Positions 1,084-60,187 of a DNA stretch of 64,000 nucleotides are shown in pieces. Each line of letters begins with the position of its first letter. Position 1 is the first letter of the stretch. The notes below the pieces were generated by a model that saw nothing but the letters and a program-made list of their open reading frames with translations, made no database searches and was not told the origin of the DNA. Origin of the DNA: a virus; IMG/VR virus record IMGVR_UViG_3300030002_000003, positions 1 through 64,000 of that record. One strand, given 5' to 3'. The position numbers and the translations under genes are program-made.

Positions 1084-4000
1084 ATGAGAGATACAACTAG
1101 CATTTTCCCGGCACAGAAGCTTAGTCTAAAGAAAAAGAACGCTGAATGGGGAGAAACGTGCGTTGACTATATCATAGGAATGGGGGAGACTGTACCATCT
1201 GGTTCAGATAGAACTTCATTCGAAGAGATGGCTGCATATTACGACCTATACAATAGCATATTTGATCCAAAAGATTTAAAGCATGTTACTGACCCATTTA
1301 ATCAAGAAGATGGATTTCCTGCTAATCCTCAGAGTATTAATATCATAAAATCTAAAATAGATCTACTTCTTGGAGAAGAAGCTAAGCATCCATTTAGATT
1401 TAGAGTTATTAGAACTAGCCAAGATGCAGCGTCTGACGTACAAGATAAGATGAAGCAAATGCTTATGGATTATACCATGGCTACTATTCTATCTGGAATG
1501 GATGAGAAATCTGCTCAAGAATACCAAGAGAAGCTACAGACCGGTGAATTAATGCCGCCTGAAAAAATAATGAACTATGTATCTAAAGGATATAAAGACA
1601 TTGCAGAGAACTCAGCATATCATACACTTAACTATCTAAAAGAAAAGCTTAATCTACCTCACGAATACTCTAAAGGATGGAAAGATGCTTTAATTGCTGG
1701 TAAAGAGGTATACTACACTGGAGTAGTTAACGGAGAGCCAAATATGGAACGCGTTAATCCACTATACTTCGGTCATGATCATTCACCTGATATGGAGTTC
1801 ATAGAAGATGGTGATTGGGCTGTTAGACGTATGAGAATGTCTTATACTGAGGTATACGATAGATTGTTTGATAAGATGACAGAGAAAGAGCTAGATAAGT
1901 TATTAGAACTTACTGGTCAGAATCCACAATCTGGTAGATATGGTAAAGATACTCCATCATCATTAGATTATGTCAACATGAACATGAAGACTGTAGCAGG
2001 TGGAGGTGATAGTACTATTAATCAACCAAATCAAGTTAATCTATGGCATGCGGTATGGAAATCATACAAAAAGATTGGATTCGTAAAAGTACTTGGCGAT
2101 AATGGAGAGCCTAACGAGATCATAGTAAGTGAAGACTATATGGTTATCGGCAACGAACTTAGCATCGAATGGAAATGGGTTATCGAAGTATGGGAAGGCT
2201 ATAGAATTGGAGAAGATATCTATATTGGGATAGCTCCACTAGAATATCAACACGTTTCTGCAGATAACCTTAATTCACAGAAATTACCTTATAGTGGCGT
2301 TATATATAATAACACTAATTCTACTCCTAAGTCATTAGTGGCTATAATGAAACCGCTTCAATACATGTACATAGTTATATGGTACAGACTTGAACTTGCG
2401 TTAGCTAGAGATAAAGGGAAGGTTATCAACATGGATATCACGCAGATACCTAAATCGATGAATATAGATCCAGCTAAATGGATGCATTATCTATCATCTG
2501 TAGGCGTTAACTTTATTAATCCATACGAAGAAGGTTGGGATATACCAGGACGTGAAGGTGGTAAGTGTTTTGGTCGCGGAACAAAGATATTAATGTTTGA
2601 CGGAAGTTTAAAAAACATTGAAGATGTGTCTGTTGGGAATTTAGTAATGGGTCCAGACTTGTCTCCTAGACGAGTACTTAATACGCACAATGGAGTCGAC
2701 AATATGTATAAGATAGTCCCTAGCTCTGGAGGAGATGTTCAAATAGTTAATAGCAGACACGATATATACTATGGTTTAAAAAATCATCATACGAACGAAG
2801 TATCTTTTATTACGTCCACCCCAGAAGAGCTGATGTTAAAGTTCAATAAAACCCCATCATGTAGAGATAGGCACTTTCTATATAGGAGAGGGGAGATAGA
2901 TATGTGGCGAAGTGGGAATTATAGAGATCATTTAATAGATCCGTACACTCTTGGACTATGGATTGGCGATGGAAGCACAAACAAAGCTCAGTTCGAAAGT
3001 ATGGATACGGAGATAATAAACTATCTAGAGGAATTTGCTATTCTTCATGGAATGAATACTAGAATAACTGCGAACATAAATAGTCGATCTCTTACTGTAA
3101 ATTTATCTGGAGGAAGTAGATCAAAATACAGGAACCTGCCTGGCAATTGGTTTTTGGATAGGCTTTCCGATCTGAACATAAGAGAGTATAAGGATATTCC
3201 AGAAGAGTATATATACACATCAAAGGAAAATAGGCTTTCAATCCTTGCTGGCCTTATAGATACCGATGGATGGTACGATAAAACAAAAAATAGATTTGGA
3301 TTCTGTCAAACAGAGTATAGAAAGCACATTGTTGATAAATTTGCATTTATTGCAAGAAGTTTAGGAATGAAGGTGTCTGTTAGAAAAAGAAAATGTACGC
3401 CATCGGAATTATGTAAAAACCATGCTGAATTTTGTTATGTTGCAAGTATACTAAGTGGATGCGAAAGAATTCCAACTAGAATAAAAAGAAAGCAAACTAA
3501 TCAAGTAAAATTCTTCGCAAGAGATGCTAATAGATCAATGTTTAATGTCGAGTATCATGGAGTTGATGAATATTTTGGATTTGAGTTGGATCAAGATCAT
3601 TTGTTCCTTCTTGGAGATTTGACAATAGCTCACAACTCAGCACAGTTCAATCAGATCACTGCTTTAGACTTAACTATGTCTAATGTTATTAACCAGTATA
3701 TTGGATTAATGAATAAGATAGAGGATATGATGGCTGAGATATCGGGCGTATCTAGACAACGTCAAGGCGAGATTTCTCCAAGCGAATTAGTTGGTAATGT
3801 TAATGCAGCTGTAAGTAACTCTGCAAGCATCACAGAACCTCTCTACTGGACTCATAATCAATGTAAGCGTAATTCATTAAGAATGTTATTGAATACCGCT
3901 AAGGAGGTCTGGAAGGACTCTAAGCGTGTTAGCTTGCAATACATAATGGATGATTCTACAAGAACATTCCTTAAGTTGGCAGATAACTTCTTCTATGAGG

Positions 4001-9894: not shown

Positions 9895-9929
9895 ATATAA
9901 GGCTAGCCCCTCAATCACTAGCCTTATAT
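9895..9929. terminator. Stem-loop closing the CCC cassette
   Basis: 12-bp perfect stem ATATAAGGCTAG/CTAGCCTTATAT with an 11-nt loop. Confidence 0.5.
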
Positions 9930-10021
9930 TGTACATATAGATTAGCTTCTATTTGTATAGCAAAACATTAAAACAATTAATTGCACTTACGTTATCGTAA
10001 AGGAGAATTATACATACCCAT

Positions 10022-10774
10022 ATGGAAATATTACTAAAACATAAAAGAGTAGACCCTTGGTCCGGCGTTACTAAATATAAAAGCTGTTCTGATTATATCG
10101 CACCATCATTAACTAGATCTGGTAATCATCACACTGGCTTAACTCCAGAAGATGAATCGAGATTAGAAAAGGCGCTAGGCCTTGGAGAAAAAACACTAGC
10201 ACAATATAGTTCGTACTGGAATACATTCACTGTTAAAATTACAAACAGAGAATTAGTACTTGATACAGATCGTCCTTGGGATGAACTTCAATATCTATTC
10301 CTTAAAAATCACCACAGAGTTTCAAATGGCATTAACGATATGAAACCAAAAGCTGATTATGTACTTATAAATAAAGACTCGGAAGCACAAGAATCCAACA
10401 GACTTAACAAACGTAAGAGAGACGCTATTAAAGAATTTGACAAGATGTCATTAGAGGATATGCGTAAATGCTTACGATTATTCGGATATAAAGCAGATAC
10501 CATGTCTGCCGAATTGGTTGAGAGTAAATTATTTGAACTAGTTGAGAAAGACCCTGAAAAATTCTTCTTGAAGTGGGTTAATAACAAGACAAAAAATACT
10601 GAGTTTACAATACAGGCTGCTATAGCTAAAAATATTATGCGTAAGAATAAAAATGCATATTATTACGGTACTGAGATAATTGGCACTTCTATAGATGACG
10701 CTGTTGCGTTCTTAGATAATAAAAACAATCAAGATTTGAAGATGACTATCCTCAATGAGCTTGAAGTAAAATAA
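10022..10774 (+). CDS. Conserved crAss-like capsid-module protein
   Basis: 'TGLTPEDESRLEKALGL', 'YWNTF' and C-terminal 'YYYGTEIIG..IDDAVAFL'; the type of gene normally found just downstream of crAss MCP. Confidence 0.65.
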   Translation: MEILLKHKRVDPWSGVTKYKSCSDYIAPSLTRSGNHHTGLTPEDESRLEKALGLGEKTLAQYSSYWNTFTVKITNRELVLDTDRPWDELQYLFLKNHHRVSNGINDMKPKADYVLINKDSEAQESNRLNKRKRDAIKEFDKMSLEDMRKCLRLFGYKADTMSAELVESKLFELVEKDPEKFFLKWVNNKTKNTEFTIQAAIAKNIMRKNKNAYYYGTEIIGTSIDDAVAFLDNKNNQDLKMTILNELEVK

Positions 10775-20889: not shown

Positions 20890-21551
20890 TGGTAAGACTG
20901 AATACACTCAACACTCTTATAGATGACATACTAAACGAGGCAAGGAATAGCAATATATCTGAGTCTGAGTCGTTGAGTAGGATTCAGATAGAGCAATGGA
21001 TAGTTCAATATAGAGCAATCCTGATAAAACAAGATATAGATAAAGGTAGAGATATCAATCCAGACTATGTACAAGAAATGGAGCTGGTTAAGCTAGTTGA
21101 GGCTGGTAATAGCCCTTCGTATATAGACAATAGAAGGTGGACCGCTAAAACAGATATAGTCATACCCAAAACTATAGACTTTCATTTTGGTACCGGAATA
21201 ACTGCAATAACAGACCTAATGGGAAATAAGATACAATTAGCCACTGAGTATATTGCAAACATGCAAAGTAATAGACGTTACACTAGCAATGACTATATAG
21301 CGTACAAGAAGGGTGATAGACTGATGATATCTGGTCCTAATGAATTAGGAGCTGTTAATATAAGAGGAGTTTTTGAGAATCCATCAGAAGCCTCAGTTAA
21401 TTTTAGTGCAGATGACTTATATCCTATACCGGTAAATATGTTGCCAGTTATAAAGGAAATGATATTTGCAAAGGAACTTAAGTTGCAGTTTCCTTCTGAC
21501 ACTACTAATAATTCTACAAACGATATTCAGCAAGTAAATAATGCCAGATAG
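20889..21551 (+). CDS. Tail ring protein
   Basis: 'LSRIQIEQWI.QYRA.LIKQDIDK', 'IRGVFENP' and 'YPIP..M' are typical of the crAss ring protein preceding the IHF-like gene. Confidence 0.65.
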   Translation: MVRLNTLNTLIDDILNEARNSNISESESLSRIQIEQWIVQYRAILIKQDIDKGRDINPDYVQEMELVKLVEAGNSPSYIDNRRWTAKTDIVIPKTIDFHFGTGITAITDLMGNKIQLATEYIANMQSNRRYTSNDYIAYKKGDRLMISGPNELGAVNIRGVFENPSEASVNFSADDLYPIPVNMLPVIKEMIFAKELKLQFPSDTTNNSTNDIQQVNNAR

Positions 21552-28451: not shown

Positions 28452-30674
28452 ATGAATAAGAATATAAATAAATTGAAGTCTAATACTGCTTCTAAAAGAC
28501 TTTTAAAGAAATATGATCTAGGAACTACTGGTTTTAATGTAGATAGTTACATGAAGCTAAATAAGCCTGGAATGCAGCAAGTATACGGAGCTCAATACTT
28601 TGATCCAAATACAAACACTGCTATAGCGTCAAATGGAGTAGCAGCTGGTGGAGAATCTGTAGCTGGAAGCGCGATGGGTGGAATTACTCCTGGAGGAATA
28701 GCATCCGCTGCTAGTGGAATAGGTGATTTAGTTACATCGTTTGGTGGCGGAGACGCTACGTCTACCGCATCTAAAGTAGGTGGAACATTAGCTAGTGCTG
28801 GAAAGTTTGCTCAAATGGGTGCAGGATTTGGACCATATGGAGCAGCAGCAGGAGCTGTAGTTGGAGGAGTTGTTGGATTGCTTGGTGCTAATAAGGCGGC
28901 TGGGCAACAAATAGCTGCGGAGACTCAAGCTGATATAGATACTAGAATGAATTCCAACAGGAACTCAAATACTGCTATAGCTGGAAAATATAACGCTAGG
29001 AACTTTACAAACAGCAGAGTAGCTGGATTTGATAAAGGCGTTGCTAAGTTTAAATCAAATGGAATAAACTCTAATGATCCAAATGCATTAATTGCTAACG
29101 GAGAAGGAGTAATGGATGGAGCAACTGGTAGAATTGGAACCGTAGATGGTACATATAATCCTAATAATCCAGATGTCGTCCCAGCTAATTTAACAGAAGG
29201 TAGTTCAGTGTATTCTAAGAATGACAAATACGTAATACCTGGAGGGTATAGCACTCCTGCTGATATTATAGCAAGAGCTGAAAAAATGCAAACAATTAAC
29301 GATAAAATACTAATGCCAAAAGAAGGACAAAGAAAACTTGCTGGATTAGATAAGAAAACTGCTGAGTTAAATAGACTTAATATATCGAAGCAAGCTCAAT
29401 TGCTTAACATGAATACCATGCTTAATCAACAACTACAGGGAGGAATTCCAGCAAATTCACAATTACCTAGATATGACGATGGAGTTACTTCATCTAAGAA
29501 ACAAAAAGTATCTACCGATGTAATGCAAGGCGGAAGTACAGTTGGTATTCCTAAAGTAGATGTAACTGGTGTTCCAGAGGGAGATTATATTGATATACAA
29601 GTTCCAGTAGCTAAGGGTCAAACTATAGCTAGACAAGGAGTGTCTTTTGCAAATAAAGCCGCTCTTGATAAATGGGGACTAAATGTTGACTTTGGTGTTA
29701 AAAATGGAGCAGTTGATGAGGTAATGGCTGGGAATTGGACTGGACAAATGAATAAACTAGATCCTAATTACAAAACTGGAGGGAGTTCTGGGTATACGGA
29801 CGGAATTAAGAACCTTAGGATTTATAAGGATCAGGCAGCTAAATATGCTGTAGCTGGATCACCTGCGGCAACTACTGCTCAGTCTCAAATAGACCCATCT
29901 TATAGTCTATCTAACTATGGACTTAATGGAGGAAAGCAAGCTCCGTCGACTATGACTGGATTTGGTACTAAACCAACAGTTAATAATATAGTTAGCCCTA
30001 CATCGTCTCCTAGCATAGATGTATCAGGAGTAGGATACGGGAATGTATTTTCTAGTCTATCTGCAATGGCACCTGCATTGAACAATATGTTCTCGGGTCC
30101 AGCTGATGTTGCTAAGCCAGTATACGAGCAATATCTAAATACTAACAATAGATACAATATGGCTCCAGCAATGAAAGATGCTGAAGAGCAACGCAGAATA
30201 GCTGCATATAATAATAGATCTATAAATACAAGTACTGGAGCAGGCATGGCATTCAGATCAGCAACTCCATCTATAGATATATTGTCTGATATACAAGATA
30301 GAGCAAATACCGCTAATATTGGTTATAAGAATCAATACAATGCAGTCGCCAATGAAAATATTAGAGCTAATACTAACGAACAAAGAAGAGTAGATGACCT
30401 TAATGCTAGAAATCAAGCCTCTGCTAGAAATATCAAGCGAACTGGATTGTCTCAAATGGCAGAAGGAATTCAAACTAATCAACTTATGTCTAATCAACGT
30501 AAGGATGATATGTTTAAATCATTAATATTCTCTAGATATAATACTGCAATGTCTGACGCAGATAAAGCCTCATTAGATGCTTCTATAGCAAAGATGTATG
30601 GTGGTCAAGATAATATAAATATTGGCAAATTTTTTAAAAAGAAAACAGGTATTAGAAAACCTACAAATAAATAA
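28452..30674 (+). CDS. Cargo/ejection protein 1 with Gly/Ala-rich membrane segment
   Basis: GAGFGPYGAAAGAVVGGVVGLLG segment, 'ANGEGV' motif, N/Q/R-rich helical C-terminus; lies directly after the muzzle. Confidence 0.65.
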   Translation: MNKNINKLKSNTASKRLLKKYDLGTTGFNVDSYMKLNKPGMQQVYGAQYFDPNTNTAIASNGVAAGGESVAGSAMGGITPGGIASAASGIGDLVTSFGGGDATSTASKVGGTLASAGKFAQMGAGFGPYGAAAGAVVGGVVGLLGANKAAGQQIAAETQADIDTRMNSNRNSNTAIAGKYNARNFTNSRVAGFDKGVAKFKSNGINSNDPNALIANGEGVMDGATGRIGTVDGTYNPNNPDVVPANLTEGSSVYSKNDKYVIPGGYSTPADIIARAEKMQTINDKILMPKEGQRKLAGLDKKTAELNRLNISKQAQLLNMNTMLNQQLQGGIPANSQLPRYDDGVTSSKKQKVSTDVMQGGSTVGIPKVDVTGVPEGDYIDIQVPVAKGQTIARQGVSFANKAALDKWGLNVDFGVKNGAVDEVMAGNWTGQMNKLDPNYKTGGSSGYTDGIKNLRIYKDQAAKYAVAGSPAATTAQSQIDPSYSLSNYGLNGGKQAPSTMTGFGTKPTVNNIVSPTSSPSIDVSGVGYGNVFSSLSAMAPALNNMFSGPADVAKPVYEQYLNTNNRYNMAPAMKDAEEQRRIAAYNNRSINTSTGAGMAFRSATPSIDILSDIQDRANTANIGYKNQYNAVANENIRANTNEQRRVDDLNARNQASARNIKRTGLSQMAEGIQTNQLMSNQRKDDMFKSLIFSRYNTAMSDADKASLDASIAKMYGGQDNINIGKFFKKKTGIRKPTNK

Positions 30675-38500: not shown

Positions 38501-41500
38501 AATTGAATAACGTTGCTGCTATCGGTGATATAAGCGACCTAGATATGGGTACACTTAAGTCCTGGATAAAGAAAGTTTCGGCTGATAAATCAAACGAATC
38601 GAGGTCTGCGTTATTTACTGAAATAGATGAAAGATTTGAAGACATATTTAAGCCAAAGATAAATCAATTCTTGGCCGCAATGGACATCAAAGAAGTAGAT
38701 GAAGACAACAGAACAGAAAGCGATTCTAATCAAATAGCTGATGAGGCCGCTGATCACTCTAAAGCCTCTTATGAAATATCTAAGGCTGATAATACTAGGG
38801 CGTCTGTTAAGATGTTTATAGCTACTATGCCTAACTCTGAGATGATAGATGGCAAACCTACTGTATCGTTAGAACCTTTAACTGGAATACCTACATTCGT
38901 ACCATTTGTTCCTTCATGGAATAAGATGATTAGCGAATTAAGCGACATGAGTACAGTTCCTATGATGATAGAGAAGATAGACCGCTTATCAAAAGTAGAT
39001 CCTTTCTATAAACTATTACTAGGCAGACTTAATAAGGTAGATGCTAAGACCGGTAAGATGATGTTAACCGATCAATTTATTACTCAGTTCTGGGGATCGT
39101 TGTTCAGTATGCGTCACCAATTTATAAACATTGGATATAGGGAAATAGCTGAGTCTAAGGATGATATAAGAAATCTATTCGTAATTAGAGATAGTGATGT
39201 TGAAAGAGCTACTAGAGAATTACCTACTCTGTGGGGACAATCTTTTGCTGAGAATCCATCGTTGTTTCCAACCGATGAAAATGGAGATAAGTCGTTTAAT
39301 AAAGAGTACGCTCAATCTATAAAAGATAGATACTTAACTGGACTATTGTCTCAGACTAAACCGTCTAAAGATAAAACTAAACAGATTGATCTTAACGTAG
39401 AGGAAAATAGAAATGCCGTACTCGATGAAATAGTAGACCTATATAATATGGTAGGTATTGCTATTGATAGAGATACATTAAACTACATGCTTCAAGGTAA
39501 AAAAGGAACTGCATCAGAAATGGTTGCAGAACTTACAAAATACCTAACAGATACTAAATCTGGCAGTATGAGCATCTTGTTCAATAATGTAATGTCGTCA
39601 TTAATAAAAAATAATGGAGAACTACTTAAATCTGCCAAGAATAGAAAGTCCGAAATACGTAGAGAGGTTAAAGAGATATTCCTGAATGAGAAGTTTGCAG
39701 AAAGACTTGCAGTAGCTCAATCTAAATCTCACAAATCATATGTAGAGGCAACTGTTATTGGTGCTGATGGAGCTAAGCTTTATCAAGTATCTCAAAACAA
39801 TATTATATCTGATACAGTTAGAGAGTTAAATACTAATCCGGAATTAGTTAATAATTTAATTAATACTACATATGTAGGTGGATTTGTTAACGCTAATGGA
39901 GTTAGTACTGGATCTAGAGTCTTAAGACAATTAAAGGATGGTACCTCCAAAGGAATAGATTTAAAGACATTTGTTAAACTTACTGAAGAGGGAGCTAGAG
40001 ACAAAGGACGCGACTACTTATCTATATCTGATGCTGAGGATTATGTTATGAAAATGTCTGCTTTAGCAAACGATTACATGACTATTCCTACTATGGCGGA
40101 TAAGAAGACGTATATGTTCGTTTCTGGAGTAGAGTTAATTCACCAGCCCATAGTATACTCTAGATTTATCAAGCAAGGAGCTGATGGTAAAAACGTTGCT
40201 GATATTACTATAGATTTCCCTTCTGAAGCTAAAAATCAGTTATCTCAATATATGAGAGCTGAGTTTATGTCGATCAAGAATGCATGGCAAGAATTTAAAA
40301 CTGGCCAGGATCTTATAAAGGTATACCACTATAAATCAAATAGAGACGGCTCTATATCTCATGGAAATGGACTTAGGTTTAGATACTTTGGAAATATATC
40401 TGCTGCTGTATTACTTGGAGCCGATGTTATAAATAAAGATATAAGTTTAAACTCATACTTAGATATAGCTGAAGATACTGGAAATAAGCAAGCGTTTGAC
40501 GATGTACTTGACAATATAGAAAGATTGATGCTGAATGATTACGAAGTTATGAACTCTGTAATAAATGCATCATTAATGAGTGCACTAAAGAAGGAGGTTG
40601 CATATGCTGGATCTATAGGGGTTATTGAATACAATGGTACTATTGGATCTATAAAAAATAAGCTACTTGATAGAGGCTCCATATCTAGAAAATCCGCAGA
40701 AATGGATTCATTGCTTAGTAGCTATGACCCAGTATCTGGAAACAAGATCTCTAACTATGGAGAACAAGCTGCTATCTTAGACGCTTTGTCGGAAAACTTA
40801 GTAAATGAAATTATATCTGTAATCGAATTTGAGAAGCTATTTTCTAAAGATCCTGCATTCTACAAAGATACCGATGCTAAGATTAAGCGTCTATCATCTA
40901 TGCTATCTACTGGTACTAACCTTAGAACTGAATGGCCAATTGGTCATAACCTTCAAGGCGTAACTACATTTACTTCTGCTGAGGCAGCTGATAATATAGT
41001 AGGCAGTAGGGAATACGACAAGGTATTGAATAGATTCAAGGCTAATGAGATAAATGAACTTATAGTTGCTCATGGAAAATTATATGTATACGATCTACAT
41101 GACTTAATTGAAAATCATTCATTACCTGCTGAATCTAGAGACCAGGCTAAAGAAGATAGGCTTCAAATGCTTCAAAAGTCATTTAAAGAGGAATTTATTG
41201 CTGGATCTAAGATAGCTGAAAAGAATTCTGCTGGATATGGATTGAATGGAATAGATGAAACTGATGCTACTGTATATATAACTCCTAAGATGTGGAGAAA
41301 TATGCAAGAAATGCTTGGTGATTGGAACCCTGATATGCAAGAGGCTTTTGATTTACTAGAGTCTAAAGAGCAATCATGGGTTAATAATGATGAACAGTAT
41401 AACAAAGTTGCTAAATTAGCTATGGCTCCGATGAAGATGATCTACTTTGGTAGTAAGGTTGATTCAGAGAGAGGTTTGGATATTCCAAAGCTTGACAAGA

Positions 41501-44500
41501 TGGCAATGTTCCCATTGTTTAAATTCATGGCTAATGGAGATTTATCTCATCTATATGATACTATGAATAGCAAAACGAAGCCAATCGACATGGTTGCTTT
41601 CCAAACTGCTGTTAAAGTAGGTAATATAGAAGCGTCTAAAATATATACCGATGCATCTAATACGGAGATGGCCGATTTGTCAAATATGGTTACTGATACC
41701 CAAGAGTATAAATACTTAAGAAAACAGTTAGTTACTGACGCTCACCATCAATCAGAGATGTCTTTGGGTACTCAACCTGCAAAGGCTGCTATGTCTAATA
41801 TTATTGGAGATAGAGTTTATCAGAATATAATACTCGACGGGAAGAAAGGTGCTACTGGCAATAGAATCCTTGAGGCGTGGAGAGCTACAAACGTTGCTCT
41901 ATCTGATAGAGGTGTTGTAGACATGGAAAAAGAATTAGGGTTCGTAAAGAATGCTGATACTGGAGTATATGAGTTTAACGAACAGAAGCTTATAGATTTA
42001 TTCTCTGCCGATGCTGAGAGATCTAAAATGCCTGATGATGTTGTAGCAAAACTTAAATCCAATACCAAAGAAAATCCTGTATCGTTACAAGCGTTGCAAG
42101 ACTGGAAATGGATTCAAAGTAGAGTCACTTCTATGATTGGAAAGAATGTTATTGATATAAAGACTCCTGGTGGAATGTTTATTCAAATGACTGCATTCGG
42201 GCTTAGAGACGACGGAACTTCTAAGGCAAAAGGTATTGGTCAATCAAACTATAAAGGAAGCTACAAGATTAATAATGGAAATAGATTAAGATTCTTGAAT
42301 GATGATGGATCTATGGATGCAGTGGTTTCTATAAACTTATTCAAAGATGTTATTCCCGCTGATATCAAAAAACTTAGCTTTACGAAGCAAGTTGATTGGT
42401 TAATATCTAACGGAATAATTGGAAATGATTCAGCTCCATCTTCTATTGGGTATCGTGTACCAACTCAAGGACTATCATCAATGTCAGCACTTAAGATCGT
42501 AGATGTCTTACCTGCAAATATAGAAGATACTATAATTCTTCCTACTGAGTTCACCAAACTTACCGGCTCTGACTTTGATATTGATAAGCTTTATATAGCT
42601 AGATATAATTTCAAAACTGATTCAGAAGGCGCTATTAGAAAAGTAGAGTTCGACGATTCTAGAATTGGGAAGAATGGAGAAGATGCTTATCACTCAAATA
42701 GTACTACTGCTTTACAGAATAGACTATTAGATCTATTTATGGGCATATTAACAGATCCATCTAATGCTCATGAAACAAGGATGCCATTGGATACTGTTAC
42801 TGACGAGTTAAAAGGCAAAGGTGGTATATTAGAAGATATAGACAAGTTATCAAATGCATCTAGATCTACATATCCATTTGAACATGTAACTCCTGCTTAT
42901 CAATCTAGAAAGAAAGCTGAGTATGCTGGAGGTAAAGGTGGTATTGGGCCAATGGCATTAGCAAATGCTCACCATGTTCTTACCCAGGTAGCTAAATTAG
43001 AGTTCTTCGATAGAGGCCCTATTAAGAAATTCGGGATGAAGGATCTAGGACTTGTGTACGGTAAAGATGGTAAACGTATTCTTGACTGGCTATCTGCCAT
43101 GATCAATGCATTCGTAGATATTGCTAAAGATCCATATATCATACGTTTGAATATGAATCCATTTACTTACAGTACTGCTGAGTTATTGCTTAGAACTGGA
43201 CTAGGAAAAGATACTTTCTATTACTTGTCTCAACCAATCCTTAAGGACGTCGCTGCTGCAGTATTATTGACAAAAGGTAGATATGGTTCAATTAAAACTT
43301 TAAGTGCCTATGAGAGGGAGCAAATAGCCATTAATGAGGTTAAGCAAACCTATATCAACGCTGCTGTTGATGCTGCTAGAAAGGAAGGTGGTCCTGTTAA
43401 TGAAAAGATAGCTAAATTGAATGCAATTGAAACTAATTTAGATGATTTTGGTAGAAAGATTCTGGCTAATGAGCATATATTTGGTCATGACTTTTTAGTT
43501 TCCCAGATATCTGGTGATAGAAATTCATTCGACTGGAACTATAATCAGATAATGATGATGGAAACATTCGAGGAATTAGCTCCATTCTCTAAAGCATTGG
43601 CCGAGCTAGTTAAGTACTCTCAAGTAGATGGTAAGAAGTGGGGCAACACCCTTATTTCAATGTCTATGTATAATGACAACGTTAATGAGCTTATTGCTAA
43701 GGGAAAATCTGGGGTGTTTAGGAATCTACCTGAATTCTATTCTAAAACGTTCCTTGGAGCTAAATTGAAGAATGCTATTACAATGTCAAATTCTATTGGC
43801 AATTCAATGTTCTTTAGAACTACTCCAATAATGTATAACTTCCTTAAAAAGGCTGGAGCATTAACAGGATCTAGAAAACTACTTAGCTCTGAGACTGTAG
43901 AGTCTATTGCAGATGCTACTGATTCACTTATTAAGTCAGAGTTCTTTATCAATAGGGCTAATAAACAGGGAGTTGAAATAAAAGACTTATTCTATGGAGC
44001 AGATTCAATGGCTAGACGCCTATATAAAATAAAGGATAAAATAGCCAAGGCTGACAAAAATTCATTGTATTTAAGCTTAAAGAATAACGTATTTATCAAT
44101 CACCTTAAACCAGATATAGCTACAGTTAGGTATATTGAAACTAAGGATGAAGCTGGAAATGTTATCTCAAATAGAGACGAGTACAATCAAAGACCTGATC
44201 ATATTCTTACAGACAGTGCCAACAATTCTGACCCAAATTACGTTACTATGTTAAAAGAGTATTGGGCAGAGCTATTGGACAGCCCTATAGAGGACGTTAA
44301 TAAATTTGCTAATGACTTTATATTATATCAATTCTTCTCTAATGGAGAGAATGGTGCAATAAACCAAGTAAAATTAGGAGAGGACGTTAGAACTGATATA
44401 GGATTAGAGAAATTTATTAAAGATAGAATGAAAAATATTGCTAATGGTGAATTACCATTTGAATATAATGAAGCTATCAGAAGTATATTTGTTAATAGAT

Positions 44501-54426: not shown

Positions 54427-55635
54427 TTATTTTTTAAAGTACGATCCTAATTCATCGCTCCATTCAGAATCTATTTCGTATATCCATACGTCATTTATCC
54501 TGTCATAAGCGAAAACTATTCCTGCATCTTCTATTAAACAGTTTTTGTATACCCCTGCGTCTTCTATGTATGCGTTATGTTGTTTTGCTGAGCAATAGAA
54601 CATTCCATCATACGTTGCAAAAATCAGTGTATCTTTTTCTCCACATATTGGACACTCTTCATCATCAAGAAATACTACATCTCCTCCAATTGGTTTAAAC
54701 ATTCTTGAATTTCCTATTTCTATTAATTTCGTTAAGTTTGTTTCTGCCATCTCAACTATTAGATTTGCTGCATCCATTGAGAAGAAGTTTCTTGTAATTG
54801 AATTAGTAAATGCTTTTTTAGCTTTCTTGGCTGTCGACCTTACTGTGTATGTAGGAACGACATGTTCATGTGCAAACTTAGTATTTCCATGAGTCGTAAA
54901 CATTTCTGACACGAATCTATAACATTTATCTAAGTCTTCCATGTCAATGGTTTCTGTGGAAGTATGAGGATTCCAATATCCTGCCGACATATTACATGCC
55001 GAAACCGGAAGGCCTCTTCTTTTTAACGTACCAACATCAGTAGACGTTCCTATCGCTTTTGAATATCCATATTTCAATCCTATTTCTAGCATTGTGTCTG
55101 TAAATTCTTGGCTTGCTACTGATATTCCATTTGTATGTGTGATAAAATCAGAGTTTCCCTTTCTGTCGCATTGCACGACAAAATTACAATCATTGAAAAA
55201 TGAAATATTTGAGGCATTTGATCCCTTACATCCACTTTCCTCAAATCTGAAAAATACTGATTTTACGTTATCAAAATCCTGTAATGCTTTTATACATGTA
55301 TAGATTCCTGATCGATCGTCCCCACCAATACCCGTTTGAACTACTTTAGCTCCCACATATTCATTTGAAGCCATTGCAAACAATGTATTTCCATGAACAT
55401 ATACCTTTCTATTCTTTTTAATCGAATGAACTGTATCTGTGTGAGCTACTATGCATTTGAAGCCATTTTCTCCTTTTCCTTTTGTTGCGTATATGTTTCC
55501 ATATGCATCTTTCTGGATTAGGATATTTTTATCTATAGAAGTTATTATGTTAATAATAAATTCATTGATTTCTTCGTCTGCATCGAAAGATGATTGCACT
55601 GAGACTAATTTTACTAATAATTTTGAATCTATCAT
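54427..55635 (-). CDS. M28/M20-family metallopeptidase with C-terminal zinc ribbon
   Basis: Co-catalytic metal motifs AHTDTV, GGDDRSG, EESG, QCDR and HT; CPICG...YC...H near the C-terminus. Confidence 0.85.
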   Translation of the reverse strand: MIDSKLLVKLVSVQSSFDADEEINEFIINIITSIDKNILIQKDAYGNIYATKGKGENGFKCIVAHTDTVHSIKKNRKVYVHGNTLFAMASNEYVGAKVVQTGIGGDDRSGIYTCIKALQDFDNVKSVFFRFEESGCKGSNASNISFFNDCNFVVQCDRKGNSDFITHTNGISVASQEFTDTMLEIGLKYGYSKAIGTSTDVGTLKRRGLPVSACNMSAGYWNPHTSTETIDMEDLDKCYRFVSEMFTTHGNTKFAHEHVVPTYTVRSTAKKAKKAFTNSITRNFFSMDAANLIVEMAETNLTKLIEIGNSRMFKPIGGDVVFLDDEECPICGEKDTLIFATYDGMFYCSAKQHNAYIEDAGVYKNCLIEDAGIVFAYDRINDVWIYEIDSEWSDELGSYFKK

Positions 55636-58241
55636 GCTATCATTTTTAATAATCTTTCGTATTCTTGTTCGGCCTTTGTGTTTGAAATGTCAATACAGTT
55701 AACTGGAATATTTAATGGCCAAGCTTTCAATTCTCCATAATTGGCGAATCTTTGGGTTGACATAAATTTCATTCTTTTTATTTCTCCATCAACTTCTACT
55801 GCTTTTATTTTTCCGTATCCAAATTCTCCACTCCAATTTCTTGACGCGTCTGAAATTGATAAAGATTGATCTAAATTAATTGGATTGTCTTTTAAGCTTT
55901 CTGAGCTTTTCATCAATTTTGTTAATTCTTTTACAAATTCCTTCTTCTCTTCTAATATTTTATAATTAGAACTGTCGCATTTTAGGATTGCCACATGTTT
56001 TAAACACTCTTTTGTTATTTCCAATTGAGAGTCTGTTGGATTTGCTGGTATCGCCAATGTTATTGGTTCTACATTGATCATTTTTATTGTTTTTGGATCG
56101 AAATATAAATTTTCTGTATCTTTTAGTGAATAATAATTACCAAATTCTACAAAATCGTTTTCCTCTCTTGCATTTTTAAATAAGAACGAGTTTCCTTGTT
56201 CTATCTTTTTTTCTTTTTGCAATGGAACTGCTTTTATATCTACTTTTAATCCTTCGTAGTATTTCGATTGCCTTTTTGTTGTTGCATCTATAATTATTGT
56301 GCATGCTCCCGCTCCCTGGAAATGACTATTTTTTCGTTCTATCTTAGTAGTGGCCTCTGGTTTAAAATGTCTTATATTTGAACACGTTAATATATTTGCT
56401 ATATAAGTTTTTTGTGCCTGATTATCTCCTAATGTATAAACATTCCCTTGGTTTTCTGCTAGAATTTCTCCATCTGAAGCTATTGTTATATGATTTGCAC
56501 ATATATAATTTTCCCCAAACTTAAAAGCGCTATCTTTTATTATTTTTCTGCATACTTGGCATATCTCTTCATCTCCTTTTGTTAGGTCTTTTTTAATTAC
56601 GAGTGGTATTCTATTGAAGCTTTTTGATGTATAATAAAGAACATCTTTCTTCATTATAGTTTCCATTGTTTTTGAATCCTCTGGGCGACCAATAAATAAT
56701 TTGTTGTTTTTTACATATAAGCTTGTGCTCATTGTATCAAAATATGGCGGATTTTGGTTTGTAGATTTTACTCCATTGAATTCAATTAGAAAATTAGATA
56801 ATAACTTCCCTGATTTCATTATAGATTTAGATACTCCTGACGAGTTTATAAAGAAGAAATTTTCGTTCTCGTTTACAAACGTAATCATTTTCTCTGCTGA
56901 TGCATCACAATTCGTGAACATTCTATCTACGTAGTGTTTTTCGGTTGATTTTTCATACCATACTACAGCTCTTCCCATTAGATATTTACCATCTCCTGTT
57001 GTTAGTGCTAGCATTTTTATGAAGTGATCGTTTTCTGCATAGAACTTAATTCTGTTCTTTACAGAAGCCCCTCTCATACATGAGTTGAATAATGTTCCTT
57101 CTTTCTCTCCTGATTTCGCGTACTGTAGTTCTGGATTATCTAACGCAGCCGTTCCTTTGTAGGAAGATACATTATATAATGCCACGATCTCATCACCTGA
57201 TACCAGTTTAACTGAAGCTTTTGATTTTGAATTTACTCTGTCTTCCTCTATTCTTATCAACGCTGATAAGTCTTCGAAGAATTTATTTGTTTCCGAAAAG
57301 TCTTTAACCACTTTCTCAATTTCTGAATCAGATAATTGTGCAATTTCTGACTTTATTCGCGTATTTCTTATTGAAACGAATCCACTTACTGGATTAACTG
57401 ATTCTATTTTTTCAATCTTTGTGTTTAACTCTACTGAAATTCTATCTCTATCAACCATATCAAATGTTTTAGATATAGATTGGTTTAACGATACTTCGTA
57501 TAAATCAAAAGCTGACGATATTATGATTGCTTCGTTTAAGATTGATTTTTCAGTTTTTGGAGTGTAAAATGGATGTGCCGTTCTTAGGACATTTTCCATG
57601 TTCTTCGCACTTTGCCAAAATTTATATCCTTTTCCGCTTGTGTCTTTTGTGAACAATTTTTGTAATGCCTCTCCCATATAATAGAAGGAGTATAGGAACG
57701 TATCTCTGTCGAAATCTTTTTGTTCATCTACAGATTCTAATGCACTCATTATCGTTCCTGATCTGTCAACGCATCCAGCAATTACTGCTAGTTTTCGTTT
57801 TGCTATATTTTTCTCCATTTGAGATCTATTTAGCGCAGTAAAAACCAATTTTCCTGCATCTTCTGAGTATTCACTTTTGAAGAAATTGAAGTTTCCTTCT
57901 TTTACGTATTCCGCCTTTACTCTCGTATTGGCTATGACGCGTTTCTTTAATTTGCAATTTTCTGCCTTTCCTACTAGGGCGCTGATTGATTTAGATTTTA
58001 CGATTTCAATTGATTTGCTTTCGCTGTCTTTTGTTTTATAAAATCTATCCAAATCTTCATTTCCTATAGTTCCGACACTTATTAATTTCTCAATTAGGTC
58101 GAAATATCTCGCAAGTATTGGGCTAGCTGCTCTGGCTTTGTTGAATATATTCCATGTCCATACATCTTTTTCTTCAAAGATTCTGTAATTGAATTCATTC
58201 TGAGCTTTTTTGTCTATCTGTCTTTGATCTTCTGTGATCAT
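55632..58241 (-). CDS. Large uncharacterised phage protein with SCM / GRA..W / DR motifs and zinc finger
   Basis: NSCMRG...FYAEN...MGRAVVW...YVDRMF...PPYFDT; CQVC...CANH; ATGA-coupled to both neighbours. Confidence 0.7.
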   Translation of the reverse strand: MITEDQRQIDKKAQNEFNYRIFEEKDVWTWNIFNKARAASPILARYFDLIEKLISVGTIGNEDLDRFYKTKDSESKSIEIVKSKSISALVGKAENCKLKKRVIANTRVKAEYVKEGNFNFFKSEYSEDAGKLVFTALNRSQMEKNIAKRKLAVIAGCVDRSGTIMSALESVDEQKDFDRDTFLYSFYYMGEALQKLFTKDTSGKGYKFWQSAKNMENVLRTAHPFYTPKTEKSILNEAIIISSAFDLYEVSLNQSISKTFDMVDRDRISVELNTKIEKIESVNPVSGFVSIRNTRIKSEIAQLSDSEIEKVVKDFSETNKFFEDLSALIRIEEDRVNSKSKASVKLVSGDEIVALYNVSSYKGTAALDNPELQYAKSGEKEGTLFNSCMRGASVKNRIKFYAENDHFIKMLALTTGDGKYLMGRAVVWYEKSTEKHYVDRMFTNCDASAEKMITFVNENENFFFINSSGVSKSIMKSGKLLSNFLIEFNGVKSTNQNPPYFDTMSTSLYVKNNKLFIGRPEDSKTMETIMKKDVLYYTSKSFNRIPLVIKKDLTKGDEEICQVCRKIIKDSAFKFGENYICANHITIASDGEILAENQGNVYTLGDNQAQKTYIANILTCSNIRHFKPEATTKIERKNSHFQGAGACTIIIDATTKRQSKYYEGLKVDIKAVPLQKEKKIEQGNSFLFKNAREENDFVEFGNYYSLKDTENLYFDPKTIKMINVEPITLAIPANPTDSQLEITKECLKHVAILKCDSSNYKILEEKKEFVKELTKLMKSSESLKDNPINLDQSLSISDASRNWSGEFGYGKIKAVEVDGEIKRMKFMSTQRFANYGELKAWPLNIPVNCIDISNTKAEQEYERLLKMIA

Positions 58242-59119
58242 AGGGGTGTGGTGTATTTGATAGTTCCGTCAATTTCTACTCCTCTAAAGGATACTTTACT
58301 TACTTTTTTGTCTTCTATAAGTTTCAGTAGTAGTTTGTTCGACGACTTCTTTTTGTTAGTATATGATAATTCTATCTTTGTTGCATTGTATTCAACATCG
58401 ATGGTATTTAAAATCTGAGTTTTCGCATTATCAGGATAAGCCATAGACTCTCTTGATGTATACTCTACTATTTCTTCTGTAAAGATTTCATATGGATCTA
58501 CATAAAAACATTGACAAGTATTTAACTTGCTTGCTCCTTCTACATATCTTCCATCACTTGGATAGAACGCTGTCATTGCTCTATTTTTTGCTCCAGCTAA
58601 TACGAAATCTATTATTTCCTTTTTGTTAGCATCTGTAGCTATCATTGTTTTCTGCATGCTTACTGGAACGTCTGGATTCGTTATTGCGATTCCTGCTAAC
58701 ATTCCCTTTGTCATTAAAAATCTGTGTTTAAACATAGTATCCTTTGATATTAACATAAAAATGTCTTCTACGATTATTTCACAGTTTGGCATATTTACTG
58801 CTGATACTGTTGCCCGTGCTAATTTTGTTTCGAAATCGAAATCCAGTTCATCATCTACTCCTATCAATACATCCTTATCTACTATCTTTCCAAATGCTAT
58901 ACATTTGCAATCTAGTAGTCTGTCAGTAAGTGGAGCGAATGTTTCTTGAAATTCTTCATTTCTATATGCTATTCCGTTTAAGTTACATACCTTTCCATTC
59001 ATTAATATGCATGGAATTCCAGGCTTAACTTCAGAAATATGAAACTCCGTGTTCTTTGGAAGCATATCTATTGTGTTTATGCCAGTCTGTACCGGCGGAT
59101 TCATTTTTTTGAAATTCAT
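58238..59119 (-). CDS. Degenerate ATP-dependent DNA ligase-like protein (catalytic motifs lost)
   Basis: SEVKPGIPC aligns by eye to S.KLDG.RC; 'NLNGIAYRNEEFQE', 'DGRYVEG' and an OB-like C-terminus follow phage ligase spacing. Confidence 0.55.
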   Translation of the reverse strand: MNFKKMNPPVQTGINTIDMLPKNTEFHISEVKPGIPCILMNGKVCNLNGIAYRNEEFQETFAPLTDRLLDCKCIAFGKIVDKDVLIGVDDELDFDFETKLARATVSAVNMPNCEIIVEDIFMLISKDTMFKHRFLMTKGMLAGIAITNPDVPVSMQKTMIATDANKKEIIDFVLAGAKNRAMTAFYPSDGRYVEGASKLNTCQCFYVDPYEIFTEEIVEYTSRESMAYPDNAKTQILNTIDVEYNATKIELSYTNKKKSSNKLLLKLIEDKKVSKVSFRGVEIDGTIKYTTPL

Positions 59120-59138
59120 GTTTTCTTGTTTTTAATTG

Positions 59139-59210
59139 TCGGCTAAGCGAGATTTGAACTCGCATACTATCTATTTCTAGATCTCCATGTACCAATGTGG
59201 GCATTAGCCT
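59139..59210 (-). ncRNA. tRNA-like cloverleaf RNA lacking an anticodon (GAAA tetraloop)
   Basis: Minus strand reads AGGCTAA TG CCCA CATTGGTACA TGGA G ATCTA GAAA TAGAT AGTAT GCGAG TTCAAAT CTCGC TTAGCCG A. Confidence 0.8.
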
Positions 59211-59218
59211 TCCGTTAT

Positions 59219-60187
59219 TTAATTAATCATTTGTTCAAAGATATTTGCTGCTTTCGCATATCCTACCTTTTTCACTAAATCACTAATATCTTTTGTTTTG
59301 TACTTCTTATTGATAAAAACGAAGTCTAGATTATACTCTTTTGCTAGTTTTCTAGTAAATTGCATTCCAGTTTTGTCTCTATCATAAAATATTACAATTC
59401 TTTTGAATCTCCCTTTTATAGTGTCTATTGCGATTGTAGATATGATTGCGCTTTCGCTCGGTGGAGCTATTGCCTCATACCCCATTTCATGCAGTGTCAT
59501 AACATCCTTTAAACTTTTGGTGATTATTAATAGATCGCCATTTTCTGACAATTGTTCATACCCCTGAATATCTAAATTGCTTAAGTTTCCTCGCCATTTG
59601 TCAAATTTCTTTGCTAATGGCCTGTATATCTTAAATTTGTTAAACACTTTATAACTGTAAATTGGATTGTCTGATTCGTATTTGCCTTTAACTTCTCCAT
59701 TTACTAGAAATCTAGATAGAGCATTTACATTGTACTCTTCTAAAGTTTCTTTAGATATACCAAACTGTTTCCAGAATAGTAAATCTTTTTCACTAAATGG
59801 TCTTCTAACTACTTTTATCTCAGTTGGCCTACTTGCGAATGTTCGTCTAGTTACCCGTATCTGAATTTGGTCTAGATTCATTTCCTTTTGGATTTCCTCT
59901 AAAGTTTCTTTGTATGTTGTGTAACCTCTTAGTTTCTTTACAAACTTAAATACGCTTCCGCATTCTCCATTTGCAAGATCTTTATATAGTAAAGTTCCGT
60001 CTCTATTGCTCACAAATATTCCAAATGAGGGACTTGGATCTTCCCTCAATGGACTATTATATGATTTCCCAATTTTAAAATCTCCAATGTACCGTTTAAA
60101 AATATCGTATTCCGATACCTTGTCCAATATATCCGAAAATTCTAATCGCTTGGGCTGCGTTTCTAATATAATGTCTGTGTTAAACAT
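59219..60187 (-). CDS. DNA primase (DnaG/TOPRIM, crAss type)
   Basis: SPLREDPSPSF...YKD...GECG N-terminal domain; KIYRP, IQGYEQL, ITKSLKDVM, FYDRDKTG and KDISD. Confidence 0.88.
   Translation of the reverse strand: MFNTDIILETQPKRLEFSDILDKVSEYDIFKRYIGDFKIGKSYNSPLREDPSPSFGIFVSNRDGTLLYKDLANGECGSVFKFVKKLRGYTTYKETLEEIQKEMNLDQIQIRVTRRTFASRPTEIKVVRRPFSEKDLLFWKQFGISKETLEEYNVNALSRFLVNGEVKGKYESDNPIYSYKVFNKFKIYRPLAKKFDKWRGNLSNLDIQGYEQLSENGDLLIITKSLKDVMTLHEMGYEAIAPPSESAIISTIAIDTIKGRFKRIVIFYDRDKTGMQFTRKLAKEYNLDFVFINKKYKTKDISDLVKKVGYAKAANIFEQMIN

Follow-up and report, generated by a model that had tools for sequence, protein, structure and literature searches.

An anticodon-less tRNA-like element behind the primase gene of crAss-like phages

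It is in the short gap behind the primase gene of a crAss-like phage where the element described here is found. The window analysed, meaning the whole stretch of 64,000 nucleotides (nt), comprises positions 1 to 64,000 of the IMG/VR record IMGVR_UViG_3300030002_000003 and is part of a genome of 93,235 base pairs (bp) that belongs to the Crassvirales, nearest to the Suoliviridae by DNA similarity of its primase, and that is present in many peat metagenomes. A gap of 99 nt separates the open reading frame (ORF) of the DNA primase from the next ORF, both on the minus strand, and in this gap, at 59139-59210 and on the same strand, lies an element with the shape of a transfer RNA (tRNA) that has no decoding loop. 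The primase stop codon is found 8 nt before the element and the next start codon 19 nt after it. A first-pass annotation made from the sequence had proposed a 72-nt minus-strand cloverleaf in this gap, and all of its anatomical details were reproduced in the sequence itself, in the match to the Rfam tRNA model RF00005 and in the predicted fold (Table 1).

Table 1. Features at the locus of the tRNA-like element, in window coordinates.
Feature	Coordinates	Strand	Evidence
tRNA-like element, 72 nt, cloverleaf without anticodon loop	59139..59210	-	RF00005 and R1 matches, identical independent contig
Acceptor 5' strand, positions 1-7; A1 unpaired, 2-7 pair with 59141-59146	59204..59210	-	
D arm: stem CCCA/TGGA (3 bp plus C.A mismatch), 10-nt loop with GG	59184..59201	-	
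'Anticodon' arm: 5-bp stem ATCTA/TAGAT with GAAA tetraloop (loop 59174-59177)	59169..59182	-	
Variable loop AGTAT, 5 nt	59164..59168	-	
T arm GCGAG-TTCAAAT-CTCGC: 5-bp stem, 7-nt loop	59147..59163	-	
Acceptor 3' strand (59140-59146) and discriminator A (59139)	59139..59146	-	
3' trailer CAA (C74, no encoded CCA)	59136..59138	-	
5' leader GGA	59211..59213	-	
DNA primase gene (zinc ribbon and Toprim), upstream neighbour	59219..60187	-	Pfam Toprim_2, Zn_ribbon_DnaG; PHROG 12622, E 3e-43
293-amino-acid protein, ATP-dependent DNA ligase fold, downstream neighbour	58238..59119	-	AlphaFold2 and Foldseek

The acceptor stem GGCTAA/TTAGCC has 6 bp below an A1xG72 mismatch and is followed by U8 and G9, the mismatch of the D arm falls at C10.A25, and the D loop contains the GG that corresponds to G18 G19 of the canonical D arm. 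The T arm has the canonical form, with 5 bp and a 7-nt UUCRANY loop, and abuts the 3' strand of the acceptor. The element thus shares with canonical tRNA the standard spacing, a UUCRAAU-type T loop, the D-loop GG, U8, A73, the genomic setting and the A-C(AA) trailer; it differs in having a 4-nt loop in place of the 7-nt loop with U33 and an anticodon, and a mismatched 1:72, and in scoring below the tRNA threshold. RF00005 and ARAGORN, two of the searches proposed along with the first-pass annotation, were run on this sequence. RF00005 aligned its model positions 1-71 to the element with 27.0 bits and an E-value of 0.0018 in a 551-nt search, 2 bits under its gathering score of 29 bits, and placed 4 nt (GAAA) where the model expects 7, with no U33 and no anticodon, in agreement with the earlier claim that this loop is unable to decode. 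ARAGORN called nothing at the element with default settings, and only with relaxed settings did it call a 'tRNA-???'. A contig from a different peat sample (X8, which is not marked as a possible source) spans 59136-59286 with 0 differences; the 4-nt loop is therefore not an assembly slip. Two coding interpretations of the same bases were considered and rejected: a 57-amino-acid ORF that starts within the element (59031-59204), whose frame stops after three codons in two relatives (L005 and L009), and an amber suppressor with CUA in the hairpin, for which inspection revealed no flanking 5-bp stem. The minimum free energy fold of the element is only modestly better than those of shuffled sequences (z about -1.8 to -2.1), and therefore the case against chance rests on the homologues and their covariation.

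To collect these homologues, the same site was fetched from IMG/VR and JGI metagenomes using the primase as query. Phages with a primase 50-61% identical to that of the window were found to bear a homologous element directly after the primase stop, and 14 distinct variants were gathered, named here by their loci, two of which pass the RF00005 threshold despite their shortened loop (L005 with 37.0 bits and L019 with 38.1 bits). From ten variants we built a covariance model of the element family, called R1, which gave 30 matches over 99 loci, with one strong match per related genome; at the primase-anchored loci, this match lies just after the primase gene, and the whole-genome matches of R1 are the same elements as those at the primase-anchored loci. 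No R1 match was found at the post-primase site of about 55 human-gut crAss loci. In the genome of the window itself, the element scores 61.1 bits and is the sole strong match in 93 kb, no further copies being detected there by R1 with its filters off; a 12.9-bit match at 42944-43020, inside an ORF of 4522 amino acids, was dismissed as chance. These matches show an element family located immediately 3' of the primase gene in one clade of crAss-like phages from the environment. Additional searches extended this set very little: a scan of IMG/VR with a D-arm pattern returned only the already known loci plus unrelated coding matches, a metagenome scan with the primase, whose cluster has 29 members at an identity of at least 90%, added one near-duplicate variant (L050), and blastn of the element against GenBank phages gave no match. 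The elements of the window and L005 are 88% identical and the two primases 60% in amino acids, so the element is more conserved in sequence than the neighbouring primase gene. In L005, a 190-nt non-coding insert (3479-3668) separates the primase stop from the element, and the GGA leader still adjoins the latter.

The covariation within this family is what distinguishes the element from a broken tRNA gene. In an alignment made by MAFFT without knowledge of the structure, 91.6% of the acceptor and T-stem cells are paired, 11 of the 12 acceptor and T pairs change on both sides, and the covariation score was reached by none of 500 shuffles, while control alignments in which the pairing partners were slid by 1-3 columns gave 43% pairing or less. 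An alignment of 12 variants fitted to the model gave the same picture. Across the family, all of the acceptor pairs 2-7 are altered on both sides and four of the five T-stem pairs covary, with G53-C61 invariant; the 1:72 position is unpaired in 9 of the 12 variants of the model-fitted alignment. The discriminator A is present in 13 of the 14 variants in the register used, L073 being one base shorter with 6 bp followed by A and CAA. At the D-stem position where the window has C.A, L005 has C-G and L009 has U.G. The 'anticodon' stem of L005, L009 and L026 has 6 bp with compensatory changes around the same UA-GAAA-UA core as in the window, and the AGTAT variable loop is identical in L004, L005 and L009. 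These data show that selection keeps the acceptor stem (6 bp with a usually mismatched 1:72), A73, C74 and the T arm, and also the D arm in most members. The first-pass annotation had suggested selection for tRNA shape without decoding, and this suggestion gains support from compensatory acceptor and T changes at 50-61% primase identity and from the lack of a 7-nt loop in the whole collection.

There is, of course, another explanation, namely a decaying tRNA pseudogene that lost three loop bases and now drifts without function. In its favour, the window has the weakest copy of its subgroup (A1xG72, C10.A25, one stem pair fewer, and 27 vs. 37 bits), L021, L079 and L074 look degenerate, and some lineages have no element. 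Nevertheless, the 11 of 12 acceptor and T pairs with compensatory changes across 50-60% primase identity largely refute drift, all 14 variants are non-decoding yet cloverleaf-shaped, and the element is better conserved than the adjacent protein gene, so we regard this explanation as improbable. Because distant homologues keep their stems by means of compensatory changes, the element is no recent wreck, and the comparison of sequences supports its reading as a selected, non-decoding RNA of tRNA shape rather than a broken tRNA gene.

The anticodon arm behaves very differently from the rest of the molecule. An arm of 5-6 bp closed by GAAA is found in the window, L005, L009, L011 and L026, whereas the loop is GUAA in L077 and UAAA in L019, has 3 nt in L010 and L079, and has 3-6 nt in L074 and L073. 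In L004, the arm is missing and the AGTAT loop directly follows the D arm. In L015 (3483-3606) and L018 (3486-3592), it is replaced by a structured insert of 50-90 nt, with a normal acceptor stem and T arm; these inserts are reminiscent of an expansion or an intron-like insertion. The anticodon arm is thus shown here to be free to shrink, vanish or expand. A normal 7-nt anticodon loop in relatives or reads, which would have indicated an assembly deletion or a recent loss of function, was looked for and was found in none of the 14 variants; judging from these sequences, the non-decoding state is therefore old and maintained.

The flanks of the element offer the best indication of what happens to its transcript. 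The primase stop precedes the element by 4-9 nt in 9 of the 14 variants, GGA occupies positions -3 to -1 in 10 of them, including the L005 copy at its 190-nt distance, and the trailer begins with C in all 14 and reads CAA in 9. In the relatives, the tRNA-Arg and tRNA-His genes lie 3-10 nt from their flanking genes and carry an A-CAA trailer, with the tRNA-His of the L010 phage also having the GGA leader and the following TATTATTAAC motif, while the tRNA-Arg and tRNA-Glu of the window genome itself end in A-C-non-C. Genuine tRNAs of the clade are paired at 1:72, the mismatch being specific to the mimics. Outside the window, the tRNA-Arg(UCU) and tRNA-Glu(UUC) of genome C1 (72163-72236 and 75127-75197, both minus) have a UUUGAWU T loop (U56) and D loops without GG; it is the non-decoding mimic that keeps the canonical GG and UUC elbow, unlike these genuine tRNAs of the phage. 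No parent tRNA could be singled out from the seven genuine clade tRNAs, to which identities range from 42 to 69%. A scan of the gap for sigma-70 promoters and terminators gave nothing above shuffles.

Lacking space for its own promoter and lying in the sense orientation, the element would be transcribed as part of the replication-gene messenger RNA (mRNA). Since its setting and its A73-C(AA) trailer are shared with the genuine tRNAs of the clade, it is very probably cut out by host tRNA-processing enzymes, as far as the sequences allow one to judge: the same host enzymes that mature the genuine tRNAs of the phage would recognise the element, ribonuclease (RNase) P would cleave at its 5' end, which lies a few bases past the primase stop, and an RNase Z-type cut at the 3' side would be followed by CCA addition. 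The part retained, namely the minihelix of acceptor and T arm with A73, C74 and usually the elbow, is what RNase P, RNase Z and the CCA-adding enzyme recognise in a tRNA, and the part lost is the one read by the ribosome and most synthetases. We tentatively favour, by analogy with the t-elements of plant mitochondria, an RNase P/Z processing signal, in which the cut itself would be the most likely purpose, as a punctuation by which the primase message is separated from the variable genes downstream, and the released RNA of about 72 nt would be a side product or serve a secondary purpose.

Plant mitochondrial t-elements were reportedly described by Hanic-Joyce in 1990. They are cleaved by RNase P and RNase Z, CCA-tailed and base-modified without being aminoacylated, and no anticodon arm sealed by a tetraloop is described for them in these two sources (PMC1920247; bioRxiv 10.1101/2024.09.09.612099). 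Like the phage element, they are tRNA-derived, non-decoding and cloverleaf-like and abut protein genes on the same strand, and their cleavage defines mRNA ends; unlike it, they are organellar and without sequence relation to it, and their cleavage and tailing have been demonstrated, whereas those of the phage element are predicted. A second similar case is found in the mascRNA and MEN-beta elements of MALAT1 and NEAT1, which are tRNA-like structures with a reduced anticodon loop inside a longer transcript, excised by RNase P and RNase Z and given CCA, the cut maturing the upstream RNA. These mascRNA-menRNA elements (RF01684) belong to vertebrate nuclear long non-coding RNAs and have no homology with the phage element; a cmscan with E-values up to 10 returned no RF01684 match, just tRNA and one chance match. 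The viral tRNA-like RNAs (vtRNAs) of murid gammaherpesvirus 68 are different again, being from a eukaryotic virus, serving as RNA polymerase III promoter and processing modules for microRNAs, and keeping an anticodon-like loop.

Several observations weigh against a processing signal. The site between the primase and the next gene is devoid of the element in L022, L023, the gut clade, cr50_1, cr55_1 and cr118_1, and a cut that some relatives do without is not essential to the module. There is only one element per genome, and hence no general punctuation system. The elbow itself is remodelled in clade B and L026, which have a mere tetraloop as D loop and AGCGAKA as T loop, and its recognition by RNase P may be weakened. 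Furthermore, a bare RNase P/Z signal requires just the acceptor and T minihelix, and yet lineages with 56-63% primase identity also share the sequences of their D loop, AGTAT loop and UA-GAAA-UA core, which indicates that something more, for instance a binding partner, constrains the element.

Two of these features, the single copy and the conserved loops, also speak for a trans-acting decoy or sponge, in which the excised, CCA-tailed RNA is itself the product and occupies a host protein that reads the body or tail of tRNA rather than the anticodon. Its target might be a nuclease or toxin of a defence system that attacks the acceptor end or the CCA tail, or else a factor of tRNA maturation or quality control, and a decoy without decoding would leave translation undisturbed. 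In accordance with this, the conserved D loop, AGTAT and UA-GAAA-UA core recur in five variants from several primase clades, the 88% identity of the element contrasts with the 60% of the primase between the window and L005, the element exists as a single gene-like copy per genome, and its mismatched 1:72 (9 of 12 variants) is a property of the mimics as opposed to the paired genuine tRNAs. Moreover, in a wastewater relative (run X13) with flanks about 95% identical, the 78 nt at 59133-59210 are replaced by 75 unrelated bases, so that the element stretch alone is swapped, and loci in conflict typically show turnover as fast as this. Further plausibility comes from documented defence systems of bacteria that cleave the body or the tail of tRNAs and from the known cases of phage tRNAs escaping them (PMC10264068, PMC12851939, PMC12445682). 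Against it, no conserved partner protein is encoded beside the element, the GAAA-bearing arm is missing in L004 and replaced in L015 and L018, and a literature search for a known anti-defence RNA of this kind found none. We therefore keep both functions under consideration, the cis-acting processing signal as the somewhat more probable and the trans-acting decoy as a possible but less likely one. Both had been proposed in the first-pass annotation, and of the two only the processing signal gained indirect support, which comes from the flanks that the element has in common with genuine tRNAs.

The swap in the wastewater relative could also be understood at the level of DNA, the site being a recombination or cassette boundary, an attachment-like site or a single-strand initiation structure, with the tRNA shape either a relic or acting in the DNA. 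It is indeed at this very site that the gene content changes, a ligase-fold gene giving way to one for a MoxR-like ATPase, and the element adjoins the primase gene. Against this stand the G.U pairs present on the sense strand only (L009, L004, L018 and L011) and the retained tRNA-specific T loop and D-loop GG, and no integrase or repeats were noticed nearby, so a DNA-level element appears unlikely. A replication origin at this place was likewise considered and rejected, given that the turn of the GC skew is near 52 kb and not 59 kb.

The identity of the neighbouring genes bears on whether the element works together with one of them. The 293-amino-acid downstream protein has no Pfam, PHROG or PDB sequence match; its AlphaFold2 model (predicted local distance difference test score, pLDDT, 83.7) was matched by Foldseek to the DNA ligases of African swine fever virus and Chlorella virus with E-values of about 1e-13. 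At the position of the motif I lysine, its homologues have K, R or E, so that the protein may be a non-catalytic ligase relative. A ligase-fold protein of about 290 amino acids lies downstream in the window, L019, L021, L022, L073, L077 and L079, whereas a MoxR-like AAA+ ATPase is found there in clades A and B, and L026 and L074 share the same gene start. A search for PTH2 (PF01981) in the 93-kb genome gave no match, and SmpB and a CCA-adding enzyme are likewise absent from the phage. With a downstream gene that is not constant and without PTH2, SmpB or a CCA-adding enzyme, a functional pairing of the element with an adjacent enzyme is unlikely; the lack of these three proteins also counts against the decoy. 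The first-pass annotation had listed a carrier for the adjacent enzymes among the possible roles, which is now disfavoured, the downstream gene not being conserved and its product having a DNA-ligase fold rather than that of an enzyme handling RNA or tRNA.

In a broader form of the same idea, a synthetase indifferent to the anticodon would charge the element, which would then serve as an aminoacylated non-ribosomal carrier used by a transferase or as a mimic of transfer-messenger RNA (tmRNA) on the ribosome. An intact acceptor and T minihelix suffices for some synthetases, A73 is conserved, and the phage invests in translation RNAs, with a permuted tmRNA and two tRNAs. However, the window has G3-C70 in place of G3.U70, a long variable arm is lacking and 1:72 is mostly mismatched, no transferase is conserved in the neighbourhood, where the adjacent enzyme has the DNA-ligase fold, and the analogous t-elements are not aminoacylated, all of which makes this the least probable of the explanations considered, and a very improbable one. 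The tRNA-like domain of tmRNA does resemble the family in having an acceptor and T arm without an anticodon, L004 itself being without an anticodon arm, but the element has neither G3.U70 nor an mRNA-like part nor pseudoknots, no tmRNA model matches the locus, and the phage has no SmpB. The permuted two-piece tmRNA lies outside the window, at 9917-10099 (minus) of L027, which is 73917-74099 of genome C1, with 55.7 bits for RF04321 (gathering score 47) and agreement from ARAGORN; RefSeq annotates a tmRNA in the related gut phage cr50_1 as well (39374-39869).

Other features were noticed around the element and in the replication module. The 10-mer TATTATTAAC is rare, with one or two occurrences per genome (G001 21429-21438 and 39044-39053; NC_055868.1 48864-48873), and is found 10-30 nt after the genuine tRNA-His, the L010 mimic and the cr50_1 mimic. 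It follows a tRNA or a mimic in three of its five occurrences in relatives and could serve in 3' processing or be part of a promoter; its rarity speaks against a genome-wide motif. The two matches in the window, at 55549-55558 (inside an ORF) and 29979-29988, were not linked to a tRNA-like element, and two are within chance expectation. In clade A (L009 3557-3650 and the equivalents in L004, L005 and L015), the element is followed by the hairpin TTGAAC-ATAA-GTTCAA, the TATTATTAA motif and a second hairpin, which covaries between L004 and L009 and lies just before the ATPase start; the hairpins and TATTATTAA may form a regulatory leader. Group I introns (RF00028) occur in the replication module about 2.2 kb upstream of the primase in L018 (40-310, 80 bits), L009 (45-281, 73 bits) and L073 (1-146, 38 bits).

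Outside the post-primase site, R1 also matched tRNA-like elements in published gut genomes, where they have no usable anticodon loop. In cr118_1 (NC_055872.1 60609-60674, minus; L140 410-475), an unannotated match reaches 42.3 bits with RF00005, above its threshold; its loop has about 2-3 nt, its ends are mismatched at A1xA72, and a weak permuted-tmRNA-like match precedes it by 35 nt. In cr50_1 (NC_055868.1 48785-48850, plus; L139 386-451), an unannotated 66-nt match without an anticodon arm lies 7 nt beyond a stop codon, with TATTATTAAC behind it. A literature search brought up nothing on anticodon-less tRNA-like elements in phages, whether crAss-like or not. The element defines a family specific to crAss-like phages and missed by current annotation; tRNA finders and annotation skip such elements, and even the cr118_1 copy, which passes the Rfam threshold, is unannotated in RefSeq.

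In summary, a cloverleaf-shaped element that does not decode is maintained behind the primase gene of these phages, and its two leading explanations have different consequences. If it is a processing signal, these phages would use 'tRNA punctuation' of the organelle type to shape the expression of their operons, which would explain the persistence of tRNA-shaped sequences after the loss of decoding. It is also conceivable, although we consider it the less likely of the two, that crAss-like phages, including the published gut genomes, encode a dedicated non-decoding mimic, excised and CCA-tailed by the host, which works in trans as a decoy for a host factor such as a tRNA-directed defence nuclease or toxin; this would be an RNA-based counter-defence at no cost in translation, and a new class of anti-defence RNA in a phage order that ranks among the most abundant in both the gut and the environment. 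In either case, the family is a natural experiment on which parts of a tRNA are needed by its non-ribosomal readers, with the acceptor and T arm, A73 and C74 being kept while the anticodon arm is expendable.

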